Shown here: piece by piece, positions 1-39,245 of the stretch
Position numbering within the stretch: position 1 is the stretch's first letter
Layout: every line of letters starts with the position of its first letter
DNA from: Catajapyx aquilonaris
Lineage: Eukaryota
Direction of reading: 5' to 3'
Length of the DNA: 39,245 nt
Assembly: GCA_000934665.2 (NCBI GenBank)
Contig: KZ538943.1
Span: 1 to 39,245 of the forward strand
Notes under the pieces: generated by a model
Databases searched by the model: none
Told to the model about the DNA's origin: nothing
The model's input: only the letters and a program-made list of their open reading frames with translations
Program-made: the position numbers and the translations under genes

Positions 1-464
1 CCAGGTGGAAACAGAAAAAGGAGTGATTCGGCGAAACCGATTCCACCTTCTGCCAGCTCCAAAGCAGGAAGACCAAGAACGGCATCCGGAGGTTGAGTAG
101 CAAGAACCACCGGGAGGTGCTACGGTAGAACTGGAGCAAGAAGCAGGAGGTGGGCATTCACCAGTGAAGAAGGGTGGGAGTGACCAACGTGAAGTGCGGA
201 CACGATCAGGGAGAGTAGTGAAGCCAGTGGAAAAGTTGGACTTGTAAGTCAGGAAGTAAGGGGAAGAAAATTGTATTAGTATGGAAACAACAGCAAAGGG
301 GGGAGATGTAGTGTGTTGTATGAGTACAAGGTTGGAAATAAAGGGGGACTCCAGACAAGATGGCTGACCGAGTTGGACGTGTTTCACTAGGGGGACTAAG
401 TAAATGACTCGAATAAAACACCTTCCCATGATTTCCTAGTGTGAAAGCTGTGGATAGCAGTACA
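1..464 (+). mobile_element. 3' end of a Ty3/Gypsy-like LTR retrotransposon (pol C-terminus, PPT, 3' LTR)
   Basis: Frame 2 reads QVETEKGVIRRNRFHLL...*...RTRSGRVVKPVEKLDL* (2-247, internal TAG at 98-100). The GxxRRNRxHL and TRSGRxVKP motifs are typical of Gypsy (K02A2.6-like) integrase tails. A polypurine tract AAAGGGGGGAGA (295-306) directly precedes TGTAGT. Confidence 0.85.
307..464 (+). repeat. 3' LTR (~158 bp)
   Basis: Starts TGTA right after the PPT, has AATAAA at 412-417, and ends TACA at 461-464. The right end is inferred because the 5' LTR is outside the window. Confidence 0.65.
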
Positions 465-14600: not shown

Positions 14601-17600
14601 AGCTTGCATGGCAACCACGTACTCATAACTAATGTTAAAAATCCAACAGCTTTGCCGAATATCCACGCAGCACATGCCTGAAGCATTCAAGCCCAACGGG
14701 GATTCGCAACAAGCCAATTAAGACTTTTCCAAACGAGTTGAAAGCTTTAGCGATATTGTGTGTGCGACGTACTCCGCACGGACTGAGCAAGCATGACGTG
14801 ATTGACGATGAAAATAGCACCGGTTTGCATAGAACTAGTTAACAACGAAACGGCAGCCACAAAAAGAAGCGTTGTTGTGAATACGAGCTCATTCGAGCGG
14901 AAACTATCCTAATCTGGGGACTCAGTGTGGCAGGACATTACCGGTTGTTTTCACGCAGGAATCTAGATGAGCCGTATCCATTTTGTCACGCTGGGAAAGG
15001 GTTTTGCAAAAAAAAATGGCCAATTTTTTATAACTGTCCTTTCGCCCTTAATAAACCCCACTTTCAGTAAGCCCCTAAAGACCGCGAGGTTGGGTCTAAA
15101 AAAAACTGTGAAATTATCGCATCCTGGTATACAGGACCGCAACCTTTTGGGTGTCGTTTGGGTTAGAGTGTTTGATACCCCCCCCNCCCCCCCCCCTGCA
15201 AGTCTTGGGCAAAAAAAGATACTTCCGTGCTCGTGTGATATAATAATCCACAGTGTCATGTACCCGGTGCCCTGTAATGCAGCCCTGATAACCGCCCGGG
15301 TTTAAATTTGGTTCCACGCACACACGACACATATCCACATGCAAACTTTCGCCACTTTCACGTGTGCTCAAAATGTGTATCCTGAATGAGGAAATTGCAG
15401 TCTTCCCAACTTGTTGCTGTTGTATTCAGCCGGCTAAATGGGCCATATAAAATGATGGTTTTTCTGTATATAGCTGAAAGATCAAGACGTGAGAAGTATT
15501 CGGTTTTTTGAGTTGAATTTTGGTCATATTATTGATGTACTGTACAGTGTACACGCCTCATAAATTAAGCACTGCATTTTGCAGCCCCCCGCACAATAAA
15601 GCAGATTAAATAATAATTTCATCGATGCCTTCAATTTTTTAGCAACTAAGCTTGGGGCCGAGGGCTTATATTGTATGTGCCACCTAATCAGTAGCCCTAC
15701 AAAAACCAATGTCCTCGTAGGATTTTGTATGTTGTCGCCCTAATATGTTGGTGCCTAGGTCTGAACCTACCGGTGCGTGGTGGACAGAGAGGTCAGATTA
15801 ATTTTAATCCTGCGGTGACATAAAGGACACCTCAGTTTTTTTTATAAAAAAAATCGTTGCGGCATCGGCAGGACTTTTTCTTGGCCTGCAATGCCTATCC
15901 TCGCACGAAAAAGAATGGCAATCAATAGTTATGGGAGATGTTCAGCCTTAAACGAGGGCTAGTAGCCTGGGGAAAATGGTGTTTGTAGTGTAGGTGACAC
16001 CAGCAGGAGGGAAAAAATGTGGACGATGGCCCAGAAACCAGGTCGCTGCACTTGTTTTTTTTATTGGCACTATCGGACACCCCCCCCCCCCCCCACCCCN
16101 CCCCCGCCCCGATTTGGAATGCTGTCGCCATCTGCGTCTGCCTTCAGCTCCAGTCGAGGCCAACTTTGCTCAAATCCTTTAATATGATATATCTAGCGCG
16201 CCGCCTCGAATTCATCAGCTGTTGTGGAATTTCTACCGACTCGCCTAGAAACGGATCTCTCAGCATCTGTCATATTGTTCGACCTTTGTGCAGTGCCTGG
16301 ATGTAAGCAAAGGCTGTTTCATCCTACGTTCTGTGATGTTTAAAAAGGGCAACGATGGAAGGAGCACCAAAATGTGGTACAATTTAAGGAAAGAAAATGC
16401 GACAAGAATAGTAATACCGGTATATTTTGTTCCAAATGTTTTTTTTTAGTGCAAGTGCTACTTATAGATTTAGATGGGATTGGCTTGCAGATATTCTTTA
16501 ATGAAATATCCTTTCATTTCGAGAGTGTGCCCATCACCTGATACTCTACCTGCTAGTGAGGAACGTGACATAACCACGTTATTGACATTATACAGGGTGT
16601 TTCAACTTTTTTGTCCGAACAGTTATCGTAAAATTGCACGTAGCTGCTACTTTGTAAGCAGTGACTTGCAAACAGTGATTTTTCGGAGGAACGGAAAATA
16701 TTCCCTGCGAATCGTAGGTTGAAGTGGCATACCCCGCTGAAAATAGAGGGTCAAGCCTGGAAAATAGAGGGTCACACATGCCATGGGATGTGTGACCCTC
16801 TTTTTCCCCATTCCCCATTCCTCCGACAAATCACCGGTTGCAAGTCACTGCTTACAAAGTAGCAGCTAAGTGCAATTTTCCGATAACTGTTCGGACAAAA
16901 AAGTTGAAACACCCTGTATAGTAATCCACGCGGTTTGGAGTATAGTGCACTCCAATTAGGGGATTAAATAAAATAGCCATTACACATTTTGAATGAGTTT
17001 TTGTTGCATTTCAAAATGCTAACTATAGCATTTCAAAGCAGCAGAAGAGCTGAAAACCCGACAAACTGCATAAAGCATAGCGAATCCCTGGTTTATTACA
17101 GTGTCCAAATTCTTTCATAAAGACCAGGCAGACACTGTAACATCATGTGGCGTCCTTTCTAAATCACCCAACGTGCCTAAAATGAAGGCCAACACTGCAA
17201 TACTACCGAGGCGAGCTTTTTTTTTACCTCCCTAAATAAAACATAGCCCGCACTGTAACAGTGTCACTTTCCAAATCGAATCGGATCCACATCTAAAGGA
17301 AACACAGTCGACCCTGTAATAGTGGCCCTTTTCTAAATCAAATACGGTTGGAATGAACTTGACTGCCACTCTTGAAATCCCCTCTGCCAACCTGAATCAA
17401 AGAAAGTTTTTACAGCAAAATCACTGTACATCAGGCGTAGGATCGTCGCAATTATTTTGCACGTATTACAGTCGTTCAGTCAACTGGTACCATAGCAGGC
17501 TCATGAAAGTCCCCCGTAATCACACGCTGGTTGAAAAACTTCACGGATGCAACCAGTGACATGTGAGTCGGGAATTTGTGATTGTCGGAGCGTGCAACGA

Positions 17601-19548
17601 GCATTTTGTTCCTCTCGCTCGGCTGTTACAGCGAGTGACGGAAACCGCCGCCAGTCTCGATAGCCATTTAATACCTTGCCGGATCATGACGCCCCATCAG
17701 CTCCTCCGGAACAAATAAATGTTCAGAGAACTCGCCTTTTTTACCCAGTCTTCAAACATAATGGTGATATTAACCAAAGGTATGTAAAATAGCTGAACAA
17801 AATTTATCAAAGTATCACTTTATGTCAGCTTCAAACGCTTGAAATTTGAATCCTCATGATACACCTTGTATACTGCCACATTATCTTAGGTGTGAACAGG
17901 AAAATGACGCTATAATTGCGACAACTCTAGAAATATTCTGATGCGCCAGCCCTTACGTTTCCCAAGCTCCAAAATCCCGCGTCACCCACTTATTCTTTCA
18001 GCAGGCATCTTTTATTCATCGTCATCAAGCTCTTTACCCAGAATCGGAAGCGAGTGGTGATGATGCCATTACTATTTGCGTCTCATTCTGAATGCACAAG
18101 TCCCGTTGTGAAGTCGAAACGAGAGCAAGCTGCTTTACCTCCCTTTAGTCTGATATAATTTTGTATTTTGGATGCAACTTGCCCATCGCAGTCTCTCAAA
18201 CGATCCCCGCCGGGAGTCGAACCCAGGATCATACCCATACCAAATGGATTTTGCTCGCCTCTTGAGCTCGGGAACTTGGCGACAAAGCGATGGGCAAGGC
18301 TGTTGTTTCTGTATGATATCAGATGCCCTTATATATCAACTTGCTCGTTAAAATGCACCAACTTTACCCGATTCTTTTCGAACATGCTTGTTATTATCGG
18401 GTAGTGGATTCAAGTTGCTGCAGGTTATGAGGGTTCAACCGACTCTCACTTGAACTCCGCACGGGATTTGCAACGTTGGCTATGACCGGAATTTCCTTTC
18501 GCTTCCACCCTCTAAAAAATACGTGCCGGCTTCGCAACAGGAGCAAAAGTTGCATTCGTGAGCGATTCCTCTCCTTGTCACACTGTAGAAGTGACGGGCA
18601 AGAAACCGCGATGCGGGGGTCTGTAATGAGGAAATGTCTCGCGCATTTTTACTCTCATTTTCTTCTCCATCTTGAGTTCTATTCTTGTTCGACACGTCTT
18701 TCTCTGAAGTCTTCAAAAAGCTTTCGCGCCTTGCTGCAACACCCGAATATGCAGTACAGCACGCTATGGTTCTAAATTTTGCACGTATCGGCACACAAAA
18801 GTTGTACTTTTGAAATGTGGCGCTTTGTGGCACAATTATTCGCCGCACATTTTCCAGTTGGCAAGTTTTCTCAGTCCAGTGCGCAATAAGGCAACCACAT
18901 ACAGTTAGCTTTATGCTGTTCTCTCTCCACCCTCGGGCTCAACATAGCGCACCTGTTGCTTCATCACAGCGGCAATGAAACTGATATATCAAAAGCTGTA
19001 GCATAATGGAATCGAAATTGCATTCGTACCTTGCATACCGGTATATGGATTTCCGCGCTGTTAAGAGAAAGAGCGAGCACATCACAGCCGTTACGAGAAA
19101 GACGGCCTCACAGCCGTTAGGGGAAGAACCGCGGTCCTACTAGCCTTTATGGAAAAGACGGCCTCACAGCCGTTAGGGGAAGAACCACGGTTCTACCAGC
19201 CGTTACGGGAAAGACAGCCTCACAGCCGTTAGGGGAAGAACGCGGTCCTACCAGCCGTTACACGAAAAACCACTCTCCTAACGGCCATTATGGGAAAGAC
19301 CTGGTTTTATCATTGTCCATAATCGGAAATGTGGGTTGCTCACCCCAAACATGGACACTCCAGCTGTAAGGGCGCTCCTCGCTCTTTGAATCCGCTTCGG
19401 CGTCCTTGCCCTCGGCGTCGCTTCCGGTTTCTGGCAGGGTTCGCCATTTCTTGATCAGCTCTCGCGTCCGGTCCCGCGTCTTGTCGCAGGCCTGACGCCA
19501 GTTGCTTAGGATCTTCTTGGAAATCCTTACCGAGGAACTCCTCTCCAT
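2460..19548 (-). CDS. Sarcoplasmic calcium-binding protein / calexcitin-family EF-hand protein, 6 coding exons, 347 aa: join(19344-19548,11212-11393,10129-10255,8101-8289,2952-3064,2460-2687)
   Basis: All introns are GT-AG with matching phases (1,0,1,1,0); total 1044 nt. Family motifs: LSDFQKAKFTHFFRHVL-DMNHDNVISAED (EF1), VNLEEWLDAW, LEDFPLWLQYFPRIFFQIA-NRNGSGVVSKEE (EF3), and C-terminal FLLGRAPHGPGQFIFG. An in-frame TAG lies upstream of ATG 19548. Confidence 0.92.
2952..3064 (-). CDS. SCP/calexcitin-like gene, coding exon 5
   Basis: TTTTCAG|GC...TCG|GTGAGT; encodes (G)SGVVSKEELGLFYTSFMGFDPTVVRDGLDEVYNGMTS. Confidence 0.92.
3241..4115. mobile_element. Non-autonomous TIR DNA transposon with TA flanks (Tc1/mariner/pogo-type), ~875 bp
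   Basis: Perfect inverted ends GGGGAGACCGGGGCACAGTGGT / ACCACTGTGCCCCGGTCTCCCC, each bordered by TA. Internal copies of the GGGCACAGTGGTCC motif occur at ~3431-3467 and ~3759-3775. No transposase ORF. Confidence 0.85.
4446..4601. mobile_element. piggyBac-like MITE (156 bp)
   Basis: TTAA on both sides (4442-4445, 4602-4605); termini CCCTGTAATGCC / GGCATTACAGGG; internal 34-bp perfect inverted repeat. Confidence 0.85.
6506..6770 (-). mobile_element. Microsatellite-associated non-autonomous element with CCTAA/TTAGG repeats, copy 1
   Basis: Its reverse complement aligns with 12514-12802 (GTCTTCAAT.AG.TCTGGGGACGGAAA...CTCAGCCTAGGTT.GTTAGGGTAGGTTAGG). It abuts (CA)n and has internal TTTGAAAATGTCCCC tandem repeats. 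Confidence 0.7.
7463..7797 (+). mobile_element. tRNA-derived SINE family A, copy 1 (B box deleted)
   Basis: Homologous to 9292-9672 and 20083-20435; TSD TAAGTAGAAAAA at 7451-7462 and 7798-7809. Confidence 0.88.
8101..8289 (-). CDS. SCP/calexcitin-like gene, coding exon 4
   Basis: TTTTCACTCAG|GT...AATG|GTGAG; encodes WMSPSLL...YVNLEEWLDAWGHLV...LWLQYFPRIFFQIANRN. Confidence 0.92.
9292..9672 (+). mobile_element. tRNA-derived SINE family A, copy 2 with (GA)n tail
   Basis: A box TGGCCGAGATGG and B box GGTTCGATCCC; body shared with the other copies; (GA)n tail ~9632-9672; imperfect TSD AGATATGGGCGG / AGATAGGCGG. Confidence 0.88.
10129..10255 (-). CDS. SCP/calexcitin-like gene, coding exon 3
   Basis: CCCTCCCGGCAG|CGG...TCAG|GTTCGT; encodes RIRHYADWTPDSVEFNILKEVHSGFLECFLTRQPGGGSRRSS. 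This frame is not in the ORF track. Confidence 0.9.
11212..11393 (-). CDS. SCP/calexcitin-like gene, coding exon 2 (EF-hand 1)
   Basis: TGTCTTTCAG|CC...GAG|GTACAG; encodes TWVQRG...FLSDFQKAKFTHFFRHVLDMNHDNVISAEDFDALNE. Confidence 0.93.
12514..12802 (+). mobile_element. Microsatellite-associated non-autonomous element with TTAGG repeats, copy 2
   Basis: Imperfect ~35-bp terminal inverted repeats (TGTCTTCAATAAGG...GGGGAC / GTCCCC...CCTTAGTGAAGACA), (TG)n on both sides, and a TTAGG-like run at 12701-12739. Confidence 0.72.
13858..14092. mobile_element. hAT (Charlie/Buster-type) MITE, 235 bp
   Basis: Termini CAGTGGTTCCCAA / TTGGGGACCACTG; exact 8-bp TSD GTCTAGAG (13850-13857, 14093-14100). Confidence 0.92.
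14109..14442. mobile_element. Tc1/mariner-type MITE, copy 1
   Basis: TA|CAGGGTGTTTCAACTT...AAGTTGAAACACCCTG|TA with ~100-bp imperfect TIRs; second copy at 16593-16916. Confidence 0.92.
14445..14486. repeat. Perfect 19-bp-stem hairpin
   Basis: TAGACCATAGATATTAAAG-CTAC-CTTTAATATCTATGGTCTA. Confidence 0.85.
16593..16916. mobile_element. Tc1/mariner-type MITE, copy 2 (inverted relative to copy 1)
   Basis: Same TIRs and TA flanks; the interior is the reverse complement of 14109-14442. Confidence 0.92.
17131..17340. repeat. Degenerate ~60-bp tandem repeat (~3.5 units)
   Basis: (A)CACTGTAA-like motif at ~17131, 17191, 17251 and 17311, with recurring TTT(C)TAAATC and CTAAA blocks. Confidence 0.45.
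18203..18280 (-). mobile_element. Degenerate tRNA-like (SINE head) remnant
   Basis: B box GGTTCGACTCCC within CCTGGGTTCGACTCCCGG on the minus strand; no intact cloverleaf or CCA. Confidence 0.35.
19085..19270. repeat. Minisatellite, 56-bp dimeric unit (26+30 bp), ~3.2 copies
   Basis: Alternating CAGCCGTTACGRGAAAGACGGCCTCA and CAGCCGTTAGGGGAAGAACCGCGGTCCTAC subunits starting at 19085, 19111, 19141, 19167, 19197, 19223 and 19252. Confidence 0.9.
19344..19548 (-). CDS. SCP/calexcitin-like gene, first coding exon (exon begins at acceptor 19604)
   Basis: Encodes MERSSSVRISKKILSNWRQACDKTRDRTRELIKKWRTLPE...WSVHVW, donor G|GTGAGC. A (CT)n-TGTTGCAG acceptor at 19605 implies a further upstream 5'UTR exon. 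Confidence 0.88.
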
Positions 19549-20082: not shown

Positions 20083-20435
20083 TTATTTATTTATTTAATA
20101 CCCCGTGATAGAGACCTGGGGGCCCTTTTAGGGGGGTGGAATACCACCAATTTTAAAAATCTGTTTTTCTGACATTTTCTTCATCGCCGGTGCAGGGAAG
20201 AAAGGACATGAGGTAGGGATAGGGATTTCTGGGGAGGAGACAAGGGTGCAGGTGCAATGTCTTAAACGCTGGGCCATGTGCAGTCTCCCTGGAGGTTAGG
20301 TTGCCAGACGCCTCCAAGGCGCGGGTCAGAGACCCTCCTGACGCAGGCGAAAGGGAACTCCCGGGCGGGGTTCGAACCCGGGACCTTTCGCACAGCAAGC
20401 CGAGACGTTACCATCTCGCCCACTGCGCCTCCCCG
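20083..20435 (-). mobile_element. tRNA-derived SINE family A, copy 3 with (TAAA)n tail
   Basis: A box TGGGCGAGATGG, B box GGTTCGAACCC; TSD ATTCGTA(TA)GCATACGTATAT at 20062-20082 and 20436-20454. Confidence 0.9.
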
Positions 20436-23400
20436 ATTCGTAGCATACGTATATGGAGAATAATAATATTATAGCCTCACTGTTTTACCAATATAAAAAG
20501 CCCCAGACACTAAAATAGTTTACTGACTGCATTTTTATGCATTACACTATGTACAGCTTACTTCCTCCGCTGTTACGCTGGTCCATTCTGTCACGCTGAC
20601 GTTATTGCACGAGCGGAGTTTGTCCATTTGGTCATGCCTCTATTGGTGTCCTTCCATGCATGTATTTTTCGCCTATGATAAGGGCACAGTCCGTTCATAT
20701 GACTAATTCAAGGTGAGAATAATTGGCCTGGTTCTCATACGGTAGTTAAAATTCAGCACACACTCTTTGCCATATGACTAGACACTAGACTCAAACACTA
20801 GAGTCAAAAGAGTAGGACTAAGTTAACCCTGTAAAAATGCCCTTACTCCACCTATACCGCTGCATATGCTTCATCGCATGGAGTGTTTCGTCATATTGAT
20901 TCAGTCATATTAGGGTGACCTCCAGCCGGCCAGAGGATCACTTGATATAGAGTATCATTTTGGTGTCCGCAGTCTAGTTACCAAGTTAATGCGCTTTTAG
21001 TATGCAGTGTAGCATGGCTTGTAAGGTTTTCATCTTATCGCGCACATGAAACGTGTCTGAAAAGTCCGGCCTTCCTGTAACTTGCAAGAAAAATTATGCA
21101 ACTTTAACCATGACCTAATTTGGTGTGTTGATCAGTTGCGGTGTGCGTTTGACATGTAGCACACATGCATGAAATTTTTTGCTTCGGAAGATAACAAAAT
21201 ACCGACCGGTATTCGGTCGTGATAACGGTGTCGGAGAAGCAACAATGAACGGTTTATTACAGCATGAAGTGAGATAAGGGGCTCTAGATGACCGTATAGA
21301 GCGCGAGTCACAAGTTTTGAGGAGTAACTTACGTGTTGGATGACCGTACGTCTAATCAATATTCGCCTGTTCCAGGTAGTGTGTGAAATATACGGTATAT
21401 TCACTACTGCATTGATATACCGGTACCCAGGAGTGTATAGCCTACAGCGAATGACAGTGACTAGTGATATTCGTAATTATCTCGAAATCTGACATAATAT
21501 AAGATTTTATCATTATTAAAAAACGGAATCCTTGCAGGCTACTCTATAGGTAGTAAAATACTGTACTTACAATCCACATCATTCCCATCTGCAAGTATAC
21601 CTCCTCGTTCTATACACATGCCGAGTAATGTGAAATCCGCAATTAAATCAGGGTACACAAATACTACAATTGCATAATTAATTATCTCAAAACCCTGACT
21701 CGTCCCCTATTCATTTGGGCCGTTGAGTTGAAACTGGGCCAGTACGTGCCTCGTTTCCAGCAACCTGATGGTTAATCATCAGGTGACACTTAAACTCAGG
21801 CCTGTAGACCACATCATCGTATTGCCTGCAGTTATGTTGGGCCCATTCCGCGCAATATGTTGGACCCCACACATTCCTTGATTTTACGCACGACCATATA
21901 TGAGCAATGTGGGGGCCATGGGTGCAAAAAAAAATAGCCTCTGCCTCTGGCACAACTGTGGAGAATAGGCTGTCTCGGTCGCTAAAGGGCCAGCCTGATG
22001 AACATTCCGTGTTGGATTATTTGCACGCCACACGTGCCATGCCAGTTTAGAAATGAAGCCCAAATGAGTTCCACGATACCCCAAAATACGCCCATTGCAA
22101 TAATTTATTATTACGATAGCAGTAACTTGATACCTGCCAGGTTGTGAGCCTACGATTTTTCTTTGTGTAGATACTATTAATCCGTACAGTATAGTTTATA
22201 GATCATCAGGTGGTCTATATATACTTGCAGCCTGCATTATATCACCCAGCTTGGATCAAGCCACATTTTTGAGCAACATGCTATAATTAATGAACCGGAA
22301 GAGCTGCGCCAGTGCGATGCACTTCCGCGCCCATTGTTGTTTCAGGGATTCGCATTGTGCACACCGACACGACTCGCGCCCACATCAGCACAATTCTGCA
22401 ACTCCGGGCCTGACATAAAGTTGAGGAAGCTCACTAATGGAAGAAGGGCGGCCCGATATTGTTTCAGAATGTCCGGCACGACACAACTAGCCCACTCCCG
22501 GCATGTAATTAGATTCGATTTATCCAGTCAGGAGGCCCAACTGTAGATGGAAACAATTGACCCGTGATATATCGTTTCCCTTCCATCTCAGATTTCTATC
22601 CGGTTCTTGTCCGCGCCAATCTGTTTCAGGGCGGAACTGGCAGCCCCGATTTCGTGTCGTGCTTCACCCAGGGCACCAGCCACGACTTCATTTTGGGAGG
22701 GGGTTTCAGGTCAACCCCTGCCCCACTAACACCACCTATAGGGTCAACGTCCCACCTTTCTTACGGACATATCGTGGGCATACATGTGAAATTCACAGAG
22801 TCCAAAAAAAACAGTTTCTAGATAATAATTGAAGGTAATTGGCATTGCACTTGTTTTCATGCTAGTTAAGACAGAAAATCCTGGCTTTCTGGCTCATTAC
22901 GATATAAGTTTGCAAGGAGTGCATGTTTGAACATGATTGGAAAACCGTTAGGATTATTCGGTTAGTTTCAGCGTAGGAGTCGGAAGCAACTAAGGCTCCA
23001 ATCTAAGCGAAAGTATAGAAATTCTATCCACGTAAATCATCCGACTGATCCATGGCTGTTATTAGAAAATGAGGACGCAACCGTTGGATGAGTACATGCC
23101 TATGTACACTAGTGGATATGACAAGATGCAGTGGGTTTCCGGGTCCCAAGAATGAGTCGCTATAGGAAGGCTCCATTTCTGTCTGCCACGAAGATGAGTT
23201 TAGATTCCACACAGGGCTTCCTCTCTAGCACAAACCGAGCTTCATATCAATAAGAGCAATTTCTCACCGCACGACAGTGGTGGATTCGCAAGGGCCCTGG
23301 GACTTGCACTGTCTCACTCCTCACTTTCAAGCACCGATTCCAGCATGCTTTTGGATCTACAAGGGGCCTTGCAAGCATATAGATCTAGCTCAAGACATGG

Positions 23401-28000: not shown

Positions 28001-29848
28001 CATAGTTGGTTTGGGCTTGTCCGTTTGCAGTATTATTCGTCGCATGTAATTTATTCATATATAGTGCACACTGTATAGGGCTGCCAGTCCACTATCAGGG
28101 TGGATAGATTCAAATTGCATGCAATATGCTTTTTGTTGTCGTGGAGTATTACGCTTGCATTATGCAGCATAATAAGGCTAGTCAAACTATGTTAAAAAGT
28201 GGCGCGCTCATATTGCCACCATGTCACCAACAAATTAGTTCTCACGGCAAAACAAGGTGTTCAATTTTTTTTTAAATTATTTATGAAACAGAAACGATGT
28301 GCTTGAATTACCGCGTTTCGACCAGTTAAATAGTACGGGAAGTGTAAAGTTTATTGTTTGTCCAATCATCAAAGTGTACCCTCTAAAATTAGAATACTAC
28401 ACAGATTAAGTATATGATTCCAATTATAATGAAACCTTTACATAGCGTGGTGCATGATATATTTCTGTACTGAACTGACAAGTTCCCATTACAGAAGACA
28501 GTACTAAACTAAGAAAATATCCTTAAGGCTCATTCACATTCACGAATTCGTGCCCCGGAGTCTGTAATTCGGGCCCGACCTGTAAAAGGTCGTAAGGCCT
28601 GCTCGTCTGGGAAATTACTTAGGCTTAATCTCACCCAGATGGCAATCCAGCCTGGAATATATATGAAAAAGCAGCAACCTCTGCCTGAGAAGTGGTTCCC
28701 TAAACTTTATGGACATATTAATTCCGCTATACCCAGGGTTTTCCTAATAATGATGGCCTTTAAAAAAATACTATCCATTTGTGTGTTATAAAGTTCATTT
28801 ATATTCGACAAAAATTATATACTACAAACAATAACCAAGTTTTTGTCGCATCCAGGATTCTCTATAGGTACACCGAATTATGAAACTAATTTGTGTCACA
28901 CACTCCAAAAAGCCTCTTTGAGTTCAAAATTCTGTATACATTTTCGTGTTATTCTGGTGAAAATTACAGTTCAGATCACGTTGCAGGCACGCCTGCTCTC
29001 GACAGACTATGATATATTCAGATTTGGTTACCGGTGCTTCTGAACTGCTACCAATAAAGCAACTAGACCGAAAGAGAAAAAAAGGTTGTACTTTTCCGCT
29101 TTTTCCTTCCCCCCCCCCCCCCCTTTATACCGTCCCAGTTTGTTGATTTATTGTCACGTCCGTAAGAGCGAAACGACCCTTCGCACAAAAGTTGAGAAAA
29201 GAGGCCCCTCCCATTTGAAGCTCGTTTGACAAATAACCCCTATAGACGCCTCTTTTACTAATAAAAAATGCATGAAAAAAAATCTATGAGTAAGGAGTGT
29301 CAATTGAGTTGGCCCATTATTGGCATTAATGCAGCACTTTCCCAAGTTTAATTAAAACGAGGCACTAGGACACGCACTGTTGAGCACATCCCAAATACAA
29401 TTCTCTGAGGGATGTTTACCGAGCGGAATCCGACAGAGTTTTAGCTACCCCCTAACGGGCGCGTTGCCTGGTTAAATCTGGCCATGTGGCTGCCTTTTAT
29501 TGGTCGCAAAAGAACAAAAAGGTAAAAAGCACGAGCCCTGCGGAGAAAATCCTACCCCCGCCAGCCTCTCCTTGGGCTGCAAAACGCTTGAGCGGTTCTG
29601 ATTCAATTGACATCTCCCGAGCAAAAGGTACGTGAGGCTCTGACATAGAACCAGCAAGAGGAGGAAAAAACGCCCAACTTTACAAGCTATTTTTTCTTTG
29701 TATTTCAAAGCACTATTATTTTTTTTGTCAAGAGATGGGTAACTACCCGGAAAATACATTTGATAAAGGAAATTGCTAAGGTGTCTTATGTTAAAGATAA
29801 CAAGTTCTTATTGTTTGCCATTTGTTTTAACAACTGCTATTCATTATA

Positions 29849-30457
29849 CAGGGTGGACCAACTTCAAGTGTCGTTTTATAACGGCGATTAAAGGGACACT
29901 CCACTCAAAATACAAGTTGGCCCCCAAAAATCGGGCAAAAAATCCTGATTCCGAATGTGCAATCGTTTTTTTTCTACGCCCAACGGTAACACGGAAAATC
30001 ATATATCTACACACGTCGTCTCGCGTCGTCTGCTAAGAAGGGCGATACAACAGCATCTCGCGGCAAACCGGAGAAGTAGAGAAGGTGCTCAACAAACAAC
30101 TGCCGCGCCAGGATGCCTTCTCTAGTTCCGCCCTGTTCACCTGCGCCCACCTGCCCCGCGCGTGGTTTTCGAACGACACACTTCCAGCTTTCACATTGGC
30201 CTTACCATTCGTCTCTAAGAAAAACTGCTTATACCCTCGGAATCATGATTTTTTGCCCGATTTTTAGAACCCAACTTGTATTTTGAGTGGAGTGTCCCTT
30301 TAATAGCAGTGATTTTGCGATGACGTAGCAGCGACGTGTAAAATGTCCCACTTTGGCGCCATCGAAGTGGGCCATTTTACACGTCGCTGCTACGTCAATC
30401 GTAAAGCGCTTCTATTAATAGCCGTTATAAAACGACACATGAAGTTGGTCCACCCTG
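29849..30457. mobile_element. Tc1/mariner-type palindromic MITE interrupted by a nested insertion
   Basis: TA|CAGGGTGGACCAACTTCA...TGAAGTTGGTCCACCCTG|TA. Removing 29892-30303 restores a ~197-bp near-palindrome. Confidence 0.9.
29892..30299. mobile_element. Kolobok-type non-autonomous element (TTAA TSD), nested
   Basis: TTAA|AGGGACACTCCACTCAAAATACAAGTTGG ... CCAACTTGTATTTTGAGTGGAGTGTCCCT|TTAA. 5'-RR termini with a TTAA TSD fit Kolobok rather than piggyBac. Confidence 0.82.
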
Positions 30458-31638
30458 TATATCTGACCGCTCTCCATATGCGATTGTTTCAGAGTGAAAA
30501 CCTCCACATTAATGTTAACAATATACATAGAGCAGACAGAAGCGGCGCCAGATTCGCTATAATTGAACACGAACATAATTTAATTTGGCGTTGTTGAAAC
30601 CTACCAAACAGCGAAGCGCACACATCATAATTGTCCTGACGAATAATAGTAACTAGGTGCAGCAATGTGGGTGGCTAGATACAAAAAAAAAGCGACGTAA
30701 TTTTCATATCACTCGTAGGAAAGTCGCTTAAAAAACAACGGTGGGCATCAGGCAGACATAAAAGGGATGGGTTCACAGCATTTTTACTCCTCCCCAAAAT
30801 TGATTACCCGTGGTGACAGAGGTCGAGGAACTTTCTGTAATCAGCGAGTAGGGTGGTAGTTTCATTACCGCCACTTTCATTCTGTCAACGACACCATGCC
30901 AGTCGCCTCGGCGCCTCATTGCAGCAGGAGTCAAACGCAAGATAATTTGACATCCTCCAGATGTATGCCCTACATTGCGCTTCCACCAAAAAAAAAATAG
31001 GCGAATGGCCCCACAGAGCCCGCGGTATACCTCTTAATAGCCTCATCCTGGATCAATATACCGATTATGTTATTAAGGAAACCGAGGCATGGTGTGGTCT
31101 ACTGTATAGGACACAAGAATGAGCCGAGGCCAGTGTGTGCTGAAATGCAGGACTCTAACGGCAGTTGGTATTGCGCATGCGGCTTTAATCTCCTACTCCC
31201 AGGATGGCTATGGGAGAGATAAAGTGCAGGCCGCGTGCTTCTATGGCGACAGGATGAACCGCACCGTGGAAGGTTGAAACTTTCCAATCAGTGGCTAATC
31301 GGCAGCCCAGGTATAATTCTATTAATTCCCTACATTAGCCCCCTGGCTCCTGGTTTACGTGGCTTACACTCTGGGCTTGCGATTTAGGTCCCCATTGTTT
31401 CAATTATTTTCTCATGCGCTTGGGAAATGTTGATATTTTCGCTACCTATTACAAAGTACGTACAAGAATGTCATTGGACCAGTGGCAGCCTGATATCCCA
31501 CTAAAACTGGCTTATTTTCACTCAAGTAACAGACTCGTTACGAGCGGTTGCGAGAAACTGAGGCAGTGTGGATCGGAGCGCCTCCGATTCAATTCATGAT
31601 GTCACGTGAGAACTTCAAAATTTACCCCTATTTCCATA

Positions 31639-32349: not shown

Positions 32350-32487
32350 ATGGGGCTTAAATTGTTTTGACCACTTTATCCTGATCTTGAAGCAATCCTT
32401 CACACACCCGTACCTCCTCACCGTGGGGCCTGTGCGAAGGGTTGCTTCAAGACCAGGATAAAGTGGTCAAAACAATTTGAGCCCCAT
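32350..32487. mobile_element. Hairpin MITE (57-bp arms; PIF/Harbinger-like GGGGC ends)
   Basis: ATGGGGCTTAAATTGTTTTGACCAC... and its inverted copy with 4 transition mismatches. TSD not clean. Confidence 0.7.
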
Positions 32488-33366: not shown

Positions 33367-33414
33367 AATATTCTTGGGTAAATTTACCTTAGAATCAATT
33401 TACCCAAGAATATT
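33367..33414. repeat. 18-bp perfect inverted repeat abutting the assembly gap
   Basis: AATATTCTTGGGTAAATT (33367-33384) / AATTTACCCAAGAATATT (33397-33414). Confidence 0.75.
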
Positions 33415-33555
33415 NNNNNNNNNNNNNNNNNNNNNNNNNNNNNNNNNNNNNNNNNNNNNNNNNNNNNNNNNNNNNNNNNNNNNNNNNNNNNNNNNNNNNN
33501 NNNNNNNNNNNNNNNNNNNNNNNNNNNNNNNNNNNNNNNNNNNNNNNNNNNNNNN
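33415..33555. other. Assembly gap (141 N)
   Basis: Run of N followed by poly-C. Confidence 0.99.
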
Positions 33556-35247
33556 GACCCCCCCCCCCCCCCCCGCCCCCGATGTCTTACAAGTCAGTCC
33601 TGCTTTAATCCTACCTAAATCTGGTTCAACGGGGGTAGTCCCCACCGAATTGTTGCATGGACAATTTGGTCCGGCACTGGAGCATTTGCTGCTGTGTTTA
33701 TGTTTCGAGGGATTGGGGCCAATGCAATGGTGTGAATCAATAGTCGCGCATCTTGGAAGATGTCGTCAGACACTTCCCAAAATGTCTCGCTTTGCCGGTC
33801 TGCTTGTACACATTGGGGAGAGCATTGCGCCTAAGGGAATTGAGTGAGTGACTTAGGGTTTTACCTTTTCTGCTTTTCAACGGGGCTTCTTGGGCCACTT
33901 CGCGCGGAAGGTGAGAAAAGGAGGGCCATATGAATCAAATTGGATTTGGACATTTACATTTGGCTAGTAAGCGTTGGATTATAAATAGTTTGATTTTTAT
34001 TCCTGTTTTGAAATAATAAACGATCACAGTTATTGTCTGACGCTGTACAACCAATACATTTGTCGTTTATATCGAGGGGAAAACCGCTTACATAGCTGAT
34101 CAAAAGAATGATGGCAATTGGGCTTTACCAATATCGGGAAAAATGTTTAATTCCATGAGTATTAAACCGCATCGATTGTCACAGAATGTCCCCATTTAAA
34201 GTGTTCCGCTTATCCAGGATGATTTCAGGTCCTGAATTTTAACCTGAATAAATAATTTGAAATCCGGTACCGATACACATACAGTATAATATACCCGTCA
34301 CGTTATCTCGGCCGTGTAATGACGGCTACTCATAATATTTTATGACACATTTTCATGAAAGTACAGTAGATTTATGATCAAACTTTAGAACCTTTAATGG
34401 CGCTGTTGGTTATTTATTATCGACACCCTGTAATTACCACCAAGTAGTAATTTGAAACACAAAAGGCGACTGTTGCATCTCCTTCCAGGATGTCCCCCAT
34501 GCCCCGGAGTCGTTTTAAGGACCCCCCATTGATTTTCACCCCCTCACTCAAAGTCACGACAAACATGCATCCCACCATGTAACTCACCATTCTACGTAAG
34601 TGTGGACACTAGAATTCTTGGAACTGACTGAAGCTCATTCCCCTCATCTTACCCCTTTTGTTTGCTAGCCAAACCGTGCTTCAAACCGAGTTACCCGCAT
34701 AGGGCAACTCCAGTGCGCATAGGGAACTGCAAACAATACCGACGCTTATGGCAACCTGTTTACAAAAGATATCACAAAGAAGCCGTGTGCCTAGAAGGCT
34801 CGGAGACAGAAGAGGAGCATGGCATCACACGCCCAGTTTTCCATGCACAAAGGAGGCGAGAAAGACCAAAACCCGCCAAAACCTCAACAGGGAATTTCAT
34901 TACAGACTACTTGTGCCCAGTAAAACTTCATTCTAACATACACCCTCAATAACTAGCAAATGGTCAAGACAGCTTGAAACCAACAATTCTTAAGACCTAT
35001 TACAAGCCAAGTCTCCAACTCTTTTCTACAGGGGGAAGTTGCTTGCACCAAAACGGAATCGATAGGCTGCCTCCTACCTACAGGGTGTCAAACTAGGGCA
35101 AGAGTGAAAAAATAATATGCCGCAGAGGTTTTTCCCCCTTCACGGCCGTTCTCGTTTCATATTAATGTCTCTCTGGCAAAACAACCCCTCAGCTGTGTGT
35201 CATTCCGGGCTCAAAATACACCCTAATTTGCAATACCAGCCCCTGGC

Positions 35248-35327
35248 TATATAAGGTGCTCGTGCTATCAGCGTTAGTTAGTTCCGGCAGTGTGTGCAAA
35301 AAAAAAAAAAAAAAAAGAAGGGTAAGC
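35248..35327 (+). promoter_or_regulatory. Pol II core promoter (TATA + initiator) with short first exon and splice donor
   Basis: CTATATAAGG at 35247-35256; TTAGTT initiator-like motifs with A+1 at 35276 or 35280 (about -30 spacing); AGG|GTAAGC donor at 35322. Confidence 0.6.
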
Positions 35328-38009
35328 TAAGTACCTGAGAAATGTCGACCTGCCACGTAGTCTCAGACCCGACTGAACCTTGAATGGCTAGTCACCCAGT
35401 GATCAATCCGTATAGTACTGCGTGTTCCGTTGCACGCAATGCGTCGCCCTGCAATCTTCGATTGGTTTGGCTTTTGGGGCGAGTCATGGTGTGTTTTGTT
35501 CCCCCCTTTTCTTCTGGTTCGGGACACGCTCTGTGTTGATGGCACATTCGGACCATGGTTTTCAAGTGCTGCATGGCAAAGACAAGAATTGCTGCGTGCT
35601 TTCCACACTTTTATACTAGGAATCGTTTTATGACACTTATTTTTTTTTTTACTGCAGCTAGAACGCGATGCTAATCTAGGAAAGGGGTGTACACTTTTCC
35701 CGCTAGTGTAATGCCATGGAGGAAATGGCCTCGAAGTAATATGCAACAGCTCGAGTGCGTGACTCCATAATATTAGGTCGACCTTTTGTAGACGGTGACA
35801 TGTAGATATTAGTAGCGGTATTCCGACATCTACACTCAGTAAAGTCGCCTGAGAACCAGCAAGTAAACCCTCTGCTTCAACACAAACATACCGTACAGTA
35901 GTCCCAGTTTGACCCTGAACTCGTCACCCCAATATTTTTTGCATAATTATGTCCAAGTGCAGGAAGTCTCTAACAATGCCGGAAACTTGGGGTCGGAAAG
36001 CACATCAAGAGCATCGCTGATTGTTTCAAAGAAAATTAGTGTCCAAACACTCTCTTCCGTTTCTTGTTACGCTCATCACCAAAACTGAAGGCCCACTTTG
36101 CGTCCTCAACTCGCAGTACCTAACACTGCATATACAGCGACGACTTTCCAAGCATTTTGTAGCCCCATAAACGCTCCAAATGACGGCCCTACCTTTGACC
36201 CCGCCTTACTGAAACAAGACGCTGAGCACACACCCTAGGACTCTGGCGTCACCTTGGCACACTCCCTCATTATATGCTCATCCAGAAGGAGGATTTGTCC
36301 GCTCCGTTCACGCGCGAGTCAACACATTTTCCTTCCCTAATTATCACGGGGCATGTGGGTAGGCGAATAATTAGCGAAGGTGGCTTGGTGCTTTTCCAGC
36401 CTCCTTTCAATTTGCAGCTCTTCCGAGCAGTTATTTGCGGGCGGGAAGCCAAGCATAGAAGGCAAACGGAGCTCTCTGCCGAAAAGCCAACATTCGGTCG
36501 ACTTCATTTCGGACCGGCGAAGGCGGGGGCATCGTTTGTCCTAAGGCTGAGGCGGAGATGACATCGTCATCTAATCGGACCACGGAATAATAAGCTGTAT
36601 GGTATTCCCCGCCAGATCTGATCCGGCTCGGCGAGACGCGGCGCGGCGGAAGACCAAGCCGGATCCACGCCTATTCGTGCGCAACCATTCGTTCGGAAGT
36701 TTTATGGACCAAACTGTGATATAAAGTAGTATCGGTAGGTTCATTAAGGTGAGATGAAACTTTGTCATCTTGAGTAATATTACATGAATCTTCTGCCTTA
36801 AAGCTTGTCCAGACGTCCATGAAAATATGTGCATGAGTTGCCAGAGGCTCCTATAGTGGCGGAGTGCCTGGGGGGTAGGGAAGGATCTAGGATCATTTGG
36901 CAGGCCCAGCAGCTTCCCAGAGTTTTCAGGATGGTGCCCACTGCAATGGACAAATTTTCTACAACTTTGGTAAGTTACATTGCTTGGAGGTCGGCCATTC
37001 TCTGAGCAATCAGAAGTGCAACTTGCTGTTTGTCCTTTGCGTGAAGCGCCCATTTTATCGCCCTTACAAAATAAAGAGATAGGGAAACGTGCGAGAAGAC
37101 GGGGAAGGTTTCTCAGTCTCTTCCTCAGGTCGAGTCTGGCAGGATTATCATCTGGATTGGCTCTGGTGATGCACATGGTGCAGGAGGATCCGAGGAAAGT
37201 TGAAAATTTACATCTTTCTTCGGATCCTCGTAAAAAGACGTCACATCACTGACTCCCCAGAGCCAATCCGTCGGATAATCCTTCCAGGTCTGAGTGCTAG
37301 GGTCGTCGGAACTCGCTCTCTCTCCAGGCGCAATATCTACGCATTTACATATCATTTTTCAGCCATTTGTGCTGATGCAGACGGCTACTAAGCAGTTACA
37401 GGCTATTATAACTTCCTGGCAGTGACCGAAGCAGTAGTGGTGGAGTGGATATGGTGTCCGACTGCTAATCGGGAGGTCCTGGGATCAAATCCCGGGACAG
37501 GCAACTCTGACCGTGGTTTTCTGTGGTTTCCCACGGTCCTTCCAGGAAAATTCCGGAGTTGCTACCAAAATTAATAGGCCACAGCCTCTTCCTTCCGTCC
37601 CTATCCTACCCCAAAGAGTACAGTAAAATGAAAAGCAAAGAGTTCCAGGCAAAACAAACTTCCCCCCTAAAGAGCCGAAAAAGGCTGATAACGGGGTATG
37701 AATTATTACTATTATTATGATTATGATTACTATTATTATTATAACTTCCTGGCAGTGTACTGTATACCACACCGCTCTTCAAAGAAATATATCCAATTAG
37801 AGAAGAAATCTTGTATTTTCATTTTGTGTTCTCAACAGACCAGGCCTGCCGAATGACCCTAGATCCTTCTCCACACCTCTAGGTGCCAGGAGCCGTGGGT
37901 AACTCGTGCACAAGTTTTCTTGGACATCTGGACGGGCCTGTACATCCTGGCGAGCTGCCTGGCGCAAAAGAGGAGACGGCTATCTCGCAAATAATGGTTT
38001 ATTCACAAG
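35280..38009 (+). ncRNA. Candidate spliced, extensively base-paired long non-coding (hairpin-RNA-like) gene. Proposed exons 35280-35321, 35658-?, 36418-36734/36748, 36804-36969, 37129-37287, 37839-38009; probably continues downstream
   Basis: Plausible acceptors and donors bound the segments. Exon 36804-36969 pairs with exon 37839-38009 over ~94 positions with 12 G-U vs 3 C-A on the + strand. Exon 37129-37287 is itself a hairpin. All three frames are closed in 36418-36561 and only short ORFs (~40 aa) appear where checked. Confidence 0.62.
37425..37736 (+). mobile_element. tRNA-derived SINE family B with (TTA)n-like tail
   Basis: A-box-like TGGTGGAGTGG and B-box-like GGATCAAATCCC; body GGTTTTCTGTGGTTTCCC...CCAGGAAAAT...AGGCCACAGCC resembles insect SINE bodies; 21-bp TSD TATTATAACTTCCTGGCAGTG at 37404-37424 and 37737-37757. 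Confidence 0.9.
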
Positions 38010-39245
38010 GTATGACCAAAATGTCCCCCCAAATGGGCCGAGTGTGCAGGAAGGATGCACATACAAGGGGTATTAATAAACTTTGCAGTAACCAATCAGT
38101 TCCATTGCCCTTAGCGAGGCAGTTTTATCAAACAAGTGTTGCTGCACGAGGCTGTTCATTAGCTAGAAATAAATACACTGATGGTGTCTTTCATGCTCAT
38201 CAGTACAGTTGTCAGGTAGAAAATAATAATGAGATCTGGTACCTACAGTGTATACTCAACCATTTTCTAAACCAACTCGCTAATGTACTGTACAGTATAG
38301 AGTTCCTTCTGCAATTTTTAAATCCTGCAAATCCGGCTTCCTGAATTTTCGATTTTTCTCAGGTGGCACAAATTGCCACTTGTTCCATTTTATGTACTGT
38401 ACGTTTAAAAAAGTGTAGTTATGGTTCAGAGGGGTTTCAAGTGAAAACTTTTTTGTCACACTCACAGGTGTTGTAACATGCATACATGTCCTCTACTCAT
38501 CTATCCCGCCCGTGCACTGGGTCAAGTTCAGGACAAGAATGTGTGATCTGAGAATCGCCATCTTGGATTCCAAGAGTCCAACGCAAGTTCTGTAAACCAA
38601 ATTGTAAATTATACATTTTATATGGGTAATTTATATGAAGTAATTTATATTAAGTAAAAGAAAAAGAGAATCATTATTAAGATTATGAAACCCTTTGACT
38701 GTTGGCTACATCGTTTAATCCGTGCATATGGCGGGAATTTGACAGGAGCTTCGTTCCCACCAATAAGCATTCGGCCTCTTCTCGTCGGGGTTGCATCCCT
38801 GATGTTATTCTTAAGAGTTTGCATTTTAATTTTAAAATATTATTGTGTTATTTGTAAAATTTTCATATTTATATTTTTAAAACTAAATTTTTACACAGAT
38901 TTTTACGCAAATGTTACCCATAACCCCAAGGTAAATTATTCACATATTTGCGGTATAAAGAGAGCATGTCTGCAATGATGATAGAGAAAAAGCGCAGGTG
39001 GAGAATATGCCTGTAAACGTCCGTTGGCACCAATGTAGATCTGGCCTGATTAGTTGCTCCAGTGGGACTTGAATGGAATTTCTGTAATAAAAGGAGACAC
39101 AACGCTCGTGCTTTTGGGACACGCAAAACCTGTTGATCAGCATAGAAACACAAGATGCAGTTGGGCTGTCGCATCCTCGTTTGGTCCATCACATCGCACT
39201 CATTCTGCCGAGTACATGGGCTTTCAGTACAGAATAGGCCCAATA

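Follow-up and report, generated by a model that had tools for sequence, protein, structure and literature searches.

Can a palindrome that has kept its complementarity only in blocks mark an unannotated RNA gene, or is it simply what is left when an inverted repeat decays? The question is raised by a locus at positions 35248-38009 of a 39,245-nt stretch of Catajapyx aquilonaris DNA (NCBI GenBank assembly GCA_000934665.2, contig KZ538943.1, forward strand). This stretch, referred to here as the window, is a draft eukaryotic sequence with runs of N and poly-C tracts, a G+C content of 44% and an observed/expected (o/e) CpG ratio of 0.75. A first-pass annotation, made from the letters of the sequence, had proposed a spliced hairpin RNA gene whose stem arms sit in different exons. 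Two nested pairs of inverted repeats do lie within 36804-37936, where a repeat finder and blastn concur at the positions claimed, and the nested inverted repeat is a real feature that chance comes nowhere near explaining. What is present is an old palindrome in single copy, about 0.8 kb long (1.13 kb including a short interspersed nuclear element, SINE, that was inserted later), in which only two mirror-image pairs of blocks are still complementary. Our tentative reading is that the plus strand gives rise to a spliced, non-coding hairpin transcript of which these blocks are exons, and we put it forward as a candidate and not as an established gene; transcription, its strand, splicing and any selection on pairing are what we infer from the features set out below.

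The palindrome is composed of the following parts, given with the splice-like signals at their edges; a slash marks a proposed boundary between exon and intron.

36804..36906, plus strand: block A, the left outer arm, which pairs with 37839-37936 and stands directly after the acceptor-like TAAAG/ at 36803
36907..36969, plus strand: unpaired tail of putative exon 3, terminating at the donor TTG/GTAAGT (36970)
36907..37135, no strand assigned: left spacer, 229 nt, holding putative intron 36970-37128 and a local hairpin at 36942-37041
37129..37287, plus strand: block B, the central hairpin, with its symmetry centre at 37206/37207, the acceptor CTCTTCCTCAG/ (37128) and the donor /GTCTGA (37288)
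37288..37838 (spacer to 37842), plus strand: right spacer and putative intron 4, 222 nt once the SINE and one copy of its target duplication are subtracted
37839..37936, plus strand: block A', the right outer arm, which begins 4-5 nt past the acceptor TGTGTTCTCAACAG/ (37838)
37937..38009, plus strand: unpaired tail of putative exon 5, terminating at the donor AAG/GTATGA (38010)

The repeat finder identifies outer arms at 36872-36906 and 37843-37877 (35 nt, 86%), inner arms at 37136-37169 and 37254-37287 (34 nt, 82%) and an inner core at 37184-37206 and 37207-37229 (23 nt, 87%), where the two arms abut without a gap. Blastn reports the outer pair as 36807-36906 and 37843-37933, with 73% identity over 101 columns (E 4e-10), and the inner hairpin as 37136-37287, with 68% over 162 columns (E 1e-10). 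When ungapped columns alone are counted, identity is the same in both pairs, at 78.4% (76/97 in the outer pair and 58/74 in the inner). Alignment of A with A' yields 76 Watson-Crick pairs, 10 G.U pairs on the plus strand, five A.C and six transversion mismatches, and 13 gap columns. The earlier claim that whole exons pair with each other holds for the first ~103 of 166 nt of the left exon and for ~98 of 171 nt of the right one; it fails for tails of 63 and 73 nt, and neither blastn nor local alignment finds a partner for the exon 3 tail (36907-36969) in the right half.

The two pairs are concentric. When the 333 nt of the SINE and one duplication copy are subtracted, the centre of the outer pair falls at 37203.5-37208 and that of the inner core at 37206.5; by arithmetic, random placement of a 152-nt hairpin in the 603-nt interval would give an equally central position about 1-3% of the time. 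The shared centre and the equal divergence of both pairs point to a single ancestral palindrome of ~2 x 397 nt. The spacers between the blocks have nothing in common, and in this the first-pass annotation was right to describe the intervening introns as mutually non-complementary. In inverted orientation their local score is 15 against a null of 16.7, with 259 of 300 shuffles scoring at least as high as observed, and lenient scoring gives 10 against 10.6 +/- 1.7, with 373 of 500 shuffles at or above the observed score and a global z of 0.34. The direct orientation is no different (14 against 16.9; 294 of 300 shuffles). Copies of the left spacer simulated at 22% divergence, which is the level of the arms, score ~118, and at 35% they score 58; with 45% divergence and 8% indels, 90% of 200 simulations still leave them detectable. 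Since spacer homology is undetectable despite this sensitivity, the blocks have changed far more slowly than the sequence between them. Decay of the spacers at an equal, neutral rate, also with one arm constrained, is ruled out by simulation. Either the blocks are constrained while the spacers have become saturated, or the spacers were never homologous. Similarity and complementarity are at the null level for A against B, for the spacers against the SINE and for the outer flanks against each other, and the spacers show no resemblance to the rest of the window.

The 551-nt right putative intron contains an insertion that the first-pass annotation overlooked, a 312-nt SINE with a 21-nt target duplication.

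37425..37736, plus strand: tRNA-derived SINE, 312 nt, with an (ATT)n-like tail, recognized by a weak Rfam tRNA match, contig depth and the target duplication
37404..37424 and 37737..37757, no strand assigned: 21-nt target-site duplication TATTATAACTTCCTGGCAGTG, a direct repeat that is 100% identical, 333 nt apart

A tRNA-like head, a simple-repeat tail, a target duplication and a high copy number are all present in 37425-37736, which is a young, very high-copy SINE inserted in the right spacer. The head matches the Rfam tRNA family at 37438-37495 with 21.8 bits (E 0.38), under the gathering score of 29. An Rfam scan of the whole window at gathering scores gives 0 matches, and an E-value scan of 35000-39245 returns only this tRNA match. 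Contigs from two DNA runs of the same organism (X1 and X2) were placed on the locus at 80% likeness or more. The SINE recruits nearly all of the contigs placed (3023 in X1 and 2772 in X2), the summed depth over it rises as high as 600,856 compared with 25.8 in flanking bins, and the loose ends of other SINE copies start at 37425/37438. The family is also present in run X5, a run of unstated kind that covers the SINE alone (3/30 bins). Contigs over 35000-37451 and 37679-38544 match the window without differences, and the target duplication on either side of the SINE supports the join between these two contigs.

Outside the SINE, depth in X1 is flat at 25.8-37.5, with 72.2 in the last partial bin (38509-38600), which lies beyond the structure. 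Rises of 9.8, 6.6 and 7.2 over the arms are those expected, by arithmetic, from the 34-35-nt inverted matches of the arms to themselves. At 80% likeness or more, the DNA contigs of both runs show one copy of the locus, the range that this placement covers being copies down to about 80%. Blastn finds no second copy elsewhere in the window, and pattern scans of metagenomes with the arm cores give 0 matches. Hundreds of genomic copies, which the first-pass annotation had named as the mark of a decayed fold-back transposon, are not what the contigs contain at this likeness.

Do the blocks begin and end where exons might? Splice signals were scored with a rough position weight matrix and ranked among all GT and AG dinucleotides in the window. 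Every splice motif quoted by the first-pass annotation is present, and the proposed sites rank between the 90th and the 99.2nd percentile: donor 36970 scores 8.61 (99.2nd), donor 38010 scores 7.44 (98.2nd) and donor 37288 is at the 90.0th percentile, while acceptors 37128 and 37838 are at the 99.0th and 95.0th. On the plus strand, each of the three blocks has an acceptor-like site (36803, 37128 and 37838) no more than 8 nt upstream of its start. Together these sites score 21.05, where the null is -0.24 +/- 6.36; of 5029 random placements, 0.18% reach this value (better strand, radius 8), and 1.9% when the radius is 5; the corresponding sum at block edges on the minus strand is -0.03. A test of all four edges of the two spacers is matched in 3.0% of 1410 placements (minus strand, -2.8), and a three-edge version, chosen post hoc, in 0.35%. 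In their geometry, each block is the part that a proposed exon has in common with its partner exon when the latter is mirrored; reflected in this way, acceptor 37838 comes to lie at 36907, precisely at the end of A. A simple reading of this arrangement would be that complementarity has been lost wherever at least one of the mirror partners falls outside the proposed exons.

A protein-coding role is excluded. The first-pass annotation had found no real open reading frame (ORF), and in the five-exon model the longest that begins with ATG encodes 41 aa. All three plus-strand frames of A and of A' contain stops, as do two of the three minus-strand frames of A'. Open frames differ between A and A', and mismatches fall 5/11/5 and 5/5/6 by codon position, with no periodicity of three. 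The possibility that the arms are inverted protein-coding paralogues was rejected on the stops, the differing open frames and the absent periodicity. Ten ORFs were submitted to Pfam, eight of them from this region, and for none does a family fall under E 0.01. The longest ORF in the window (224 aa, minus strand, 36571-37245) has 0 phmmer matches in 1.84 billion representatives, a search with low power for a match of the 33 aa derived from an arm. No neighbouring coding exon was identified within 35-39 kb.

In the most economical reading, the three blocks would be exons 3, 4 and 5 of an unannotated non-coding transcript of the plus strand, made by RNA polymerase II (Pol II). Transcription would start either at TATA-like and initiator-like (Inr) motifs at 35248-35280 or within a CpG-rich patch at 36450-36750. 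As introns, the unrelated spacers would have been free to evolve, and one of them would have taken in the SINE. After splicing, A (36804-36906) would pair with A' (37839-37936) and B (37129-37287) would cap the rod, so that the product would be an imperfect hairpin of ~135 bp. With helices of no more than 16 bp, such an RNA looks more like a long imperfect hairpin (microRNA-like, an editing-type substrate or a decaying hairpin RNA) than like a precursor of small interfering RNAs (siRNAs) of the Dcr-2 type. The generic proposal of a plus-strand, spliced, non-coding hairpin is partly supported, and indirectly, by the exon-limited complementarity, the placement of the acceptors and the single copy.

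When the exons are joined, the predicted fold is the nested rod that the first-pass annotation described: the 496 nt of joined putative exons reach -255.8 kcal/mol, a z of -16.5 against 100 dinucleotide shuffles (-161.6 +/- 5.7 kcal/mol). Hairpin B by itself folds at -78 kcal/mol (z -10.9) on the plus strand and at -75.6 kcal/mol (z -9.4) on the minus strand. A local hairpin in the left spacer, at 36942-37041, spans the putative donor 36970 and folds at -34.9 kcal/mol (z -3.5) on the plus strand and -27.1 kcal/mol (z -2.5) on the minus strand.

Candidate motifs for the 5' end of the putative transcript lie upstream of block A, and an AATAAA lies downstream of putative exon 5.

35248..35255, plus strand: TATA-like box TATATAAG, followed by the Inr-like TTAGTTC with its A at 35280
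35280..35321, plus strand: putative first exon, 42 nt, mostly a run of 19 A (A19), with the donor AAGG/GTAAGC at 35322
36418..36748, plus strand: putative exon 2, a CpG-rich patch, with the acceptor at 36417 and donors at 36735 (6.5) and 36749 (10.6, top-scoring)
38075-38080, plus strand: AATAAA, read in the sequence

Of the 35 TATAWAWR sites in the window, TATATAAG is the only one that combines an Inr at +26..34 with a donor that lies within 200 nt and at least reaches the 95th percentile; donor 35322 scores 8.9 where the 95th-percentile threshold is 5.73. At 36451-36750, just upstream of A, the CpG o/e ratio is 1.39 (whole window, 0.75), the second highest of the 300-nt windows, and the G+C content is 53%; the patch could be an alternative start or promoter. 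A search for a repeat origin of the exon 2 region gives weak matches only, the best with E 0.01 over 31 nt. The A run of the putative first exon could be the tail of a retroposed sequence. This run (35301-35319) is accompanied by an inverted T-rich run at 35640-35652, 320 nt away. A scan for sigma-70 promoters and terminators was set aside as irrelevant for a eukaryote.

Several observations weigh against a spliced hairpin transcript. First, the fold is not specific to one strand or to the spliced form. A comparison with the minus strand had been proposed as a check, and while the plus strand exceeds its shuffles, the minus strand of the joined exons does nearly as well, at -242.1 kcal/mol (z -13.9). 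Unspliced RNA from 36780-38030 retains 85 A:A' pairs and 49 B pairs, so splicing is not required for pairing. Because both strands and the unspliced RNA fold well, the fold reflects the DNA palindrome and reveals neither strand nor splicing. Second, the pairing of the arms is poor for a structure under selection: 78% of columns are Watson-Crick, each arm has 13-14 gap columns and the longest uninterrupted helix is 16 bp. Mismatches compatible with G.U pairing number 12 on the plus strand and 7 on the minus, beside 18 transversion mismatches (binomial two-sided p 0.36), and this asymmetry, tried as a test of strand, is not significant. Third, donors are not associated with block ends (p 0.47), only B ending at one, and sites at or above the 95th percentile occur at chance density in 35200-38400 (9 donors and 11 acceptors on the plus strand, 6 and 12 on the minus, with ~9 expected). 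The edge tests were framed after the data had been seen and use a rough matrix, so they amount to moderate evidence. Fourth, of the promoter and 42-nt exon that the first-pass annotation described, the motifs are present, but shuffles yield 0.58 combinations of TATA, Inr and donor per window by chance, and the A19 run that fills the putative first exon speaks against a genuine 5' exon. Finally, the window holds at least five other palindromic elements, and the base rate of expression for such sequences is low: in mammals, according to the part of the study drawn on here, 5.7-7.8% of intergenic inverted duplicates are expressed (PMC5398296).

A more ambitious form of the hairpin transcript can be stated. 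The locus would be a hairpin RNA gene split by introns in nature, an ancient palindrome whose pairing persists only between two exonic partners, with the arms in exons 3 and 5 and the hairpin exon 4 as cap. It would be far older than the hairpin RNAs (hpRNAs) described in Drosophila, and would give rise to small RNAs, or to an editing or regulatory duplex, only after splicing. We regard this as unlikely.

The alternative that best withstands the evidence is that the locus is an inert relic, whether a decayed fold-back or non-autonomous DNA transposon, a palindromic miniature inverted-repeat transposable element (MITE) nested in an element with ~100-nt terminal inverted repeats, or an old local fold-back duplication, with splice and promoter motifs that arose by chance. 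Such a relic is nearly as probable as the hairpin transcript. It sits well in a window rich in palindromes, among them three TA-flanked TACAGGGTG MITEs and two shorter palindromes. Folding of both strands alike without a G.U bias, arms 22% diverged with many indels, the chance density of splice-like sites, the 0.58 promoter combinations expected per window and the low proportion of inverted duplicates found to be expressed in the part of PMC5398296 used here all speak for it, and the state of the arms is as in neutral decay. The first-pass annotation held that the locus lacks both terminal inverted repeats and a target duplication. The outer arms, of ~100 nt, do qualify as terminal inverted repeats as in MITEs and fold-back elements, and no target duplication was found at them. 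An imperfect GTCGAGT / GTCTGAGT that flanks the inner hairpin could be a worn target duplication and is equally readable as an extension of the palindrome.

Against a relic stands the absence of any other copy at 80% likeness or more in the contigs of the two runs, where the neighbouring SINE recruits thousands and where a MITE or fold-back family would have multiple genomic copies. Two independent elements would have to be concentric to within ~3 nt (~1-3%) and, in addition, equal in identity at 78.4%, whereas a single palindrome in neutral decay cannot yield unalignable spacers beside arms that are 78% identical. Nor do the outer arms have a target duplication; A and B are unrelated, and the spacers are unlike both the SINE and the remainder of the window. 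Acceptor-like sites at all three block starts on one strand (0.2-2%) would also be left to coincidence.

A quite improbable alternative, and one that fares less well, is that the blocks are constrained for some other reason, as untranslated exons of a larger gene whose complementarity is left over from an old inverted exon duplication, as part of a minus-strand transcript, or as a cruciform or regulatory palindrome acting at the level of DNA. Block-wise conservation beside freely changing spacers demands constraint, which need not be constraint on pairing itself; the pairing is imperfect, G.U pairs are favoured on neither strand, and downstream exons could lie out of view because the window stops at 39245. 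Yet splice-like sites at block edges are at background on the minus strand (-2.8 for four edges, -0.03 for three acceptors), neither strand carries a coding signal and 35-39 kb contains no identified neighbouring coding exon.

Flanking inverted repeats drive circularization of exons, and A and A', a ~100-nt complementary pair, enclose an exon B (37129-37287) with a 99th-percentile acceptor and a donor, at distances of 229 nt on the upstream side and 555 nt on the downstream side; unspliced RNA retains 85 base pairs between A and A'. Back-splicing of B into a 159-nt hairpin circular RNA is nonetheless highly improbable, given that donor 37288 is only at the 90th percentile and that acceptors directly before A and A' suggest exons and not intronic pairing elements.

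How would the candidate transcript compare with known hairpin systems? Among the identities suggested by the first-pass annotation was a precursor of endogenous siRNAs of the Drosophila hpRNA type, and this one fails on the features that were compared. Like hpRNAs such as Nmy/Tmy, the locus is a long inverted repeat at a single site without an ORF, and here too the transcript would be a putative product of Pol II. In the parts of the literature drawn on here, hpRNAs are nearly perfect inverted repeats of recent origin with extensively complementary targets, and are recognized by 21-22-nt reads from their arms. The arms of this locus are 78% identical (76/97 and 58/74 Watson-Crick columns), where those accounts describe near-perfect duplexes. 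Their longest uninterrupted helix is 16 bp, and at ~22% divergence they are not of recent origin, while the SINE between them keeps a perfect 21-nt duplication. They would moreover be split over three exons. A look-alike target of the arms is absent from the contigs of the two DNA runs at 80% likeness or more, a comparison that concerns targets longer than 21 nt and at least that similar. The imperfect, old arms and the lack of a look-alike target are the reasons for which the locus is not filed as an hpRNA.

Intron-spliced hairpin RNA (ihpRNA) transgenes, used for RNA interference in plants and flies, place a spliceable intron between sense and antisense arms, and splicing leaves a tight mature hairpin. 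These constructs are engineered, with perfect arms and a single intron as loop; the present arrangement is natural, its arms are imperfect, its two spacers are unrelated and a hairpin exon forms the cap. With palindromic MITEs and fold-back transposons the locus shares inverted arms and a non-coding sequence, and other such elements are present in the window. It differs from them in being single copy at 80% likeness or more, in having no outer target duplication and in its spacers, which are unrelated yet similar in length (229 and 222 nt); the clear MITEs of the window have TA flanks and arms that are 88-97% complementary, where those of the locus are 78% identical.

Vertebrate intergenic inverted duplicates (Chen et al. 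2017, PMC5398296) also consist of reverse-complementary copies and a spacer, and would form a stable hairpin if transcribed. As described in the part of that paper used here, they are mostly unexpressed; unlike them, the present locus has block-wise conservation and block starts that coincide with acceptor-like sites. The 152-nt inner hairpin is a long imperfect stem-loop (z -10.9) similar in kind to the giant microRNA hairpins of invertebrates, as far as the portion of PMC12553114 drawn on here describes them, and differs from them in that no Rfam family matches it at E <=1. For the reading as a primary microRNA, the Rfam scans thus offer no described family.

If the transcript exists, it would be a hairpin RNA assembled by splicing from arms in separate exons. 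Selection could then preserve such pairing long after the palindrome between the exons has decayed, and the locus would be a long-lived exception among hpRNA-type loci, which the accounts consulted in part describe as recently evolved. It would also supply a signature, readable from sequence, by which further loci could be sought: arms that are complementary only over the stretch that an exon shares with the mirror image of its partner. Should the locus be inert, this repeat-rich genome simply contains another decayed palindrome, and the lesson is that neither a strong fold z-score nor splice-like motifs suffice to indicate a gene.

The remainder of the window contains several further repeats. 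Three palindromic MITE-like elements, at 14103-14448, 16589-16921 and 29845-30461, have TACAGGGTG... termini, TA flanks and arms that are 88-97% complementary. Their TA-flanked TACAGGGTG termini are a Tc1/mariner-like signature, and the element at 29845-30461 holds further nested inverted repeats. Two short palindromes, at 4450-4579 and 32350-32487, have arms of 45 and 57 nt (93%) and loops of 40 and 24 nt, respectively. A dispersed repeat is present in three copies (7460-7640, 9306-9483 and 20270-20438) that are 85-91% alike, the third being inverted, and a tandem array at 19065-19300 comprises 4-5 copies with a period of ~56 nt and 67-96% identity.

The N run at 33413-33555 and the poly-C tracts with embedded N at 15174, 16083, 27113 and 29109 look like artefacts of assembly or sequencing. 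On the minus strand, the ORF at 10867-11430 includes an EF-hand-like stretch, for which the Pfam match to EF-hand_5 (E 0.028) falls below the cut-off. Its features lie nearest to EF-hand clusters of the Atlas, at 0.90-0.93, which are leads at the level of family and carry no taxa. This ORF is probably an exon of a gene for a calcium-binding protein.

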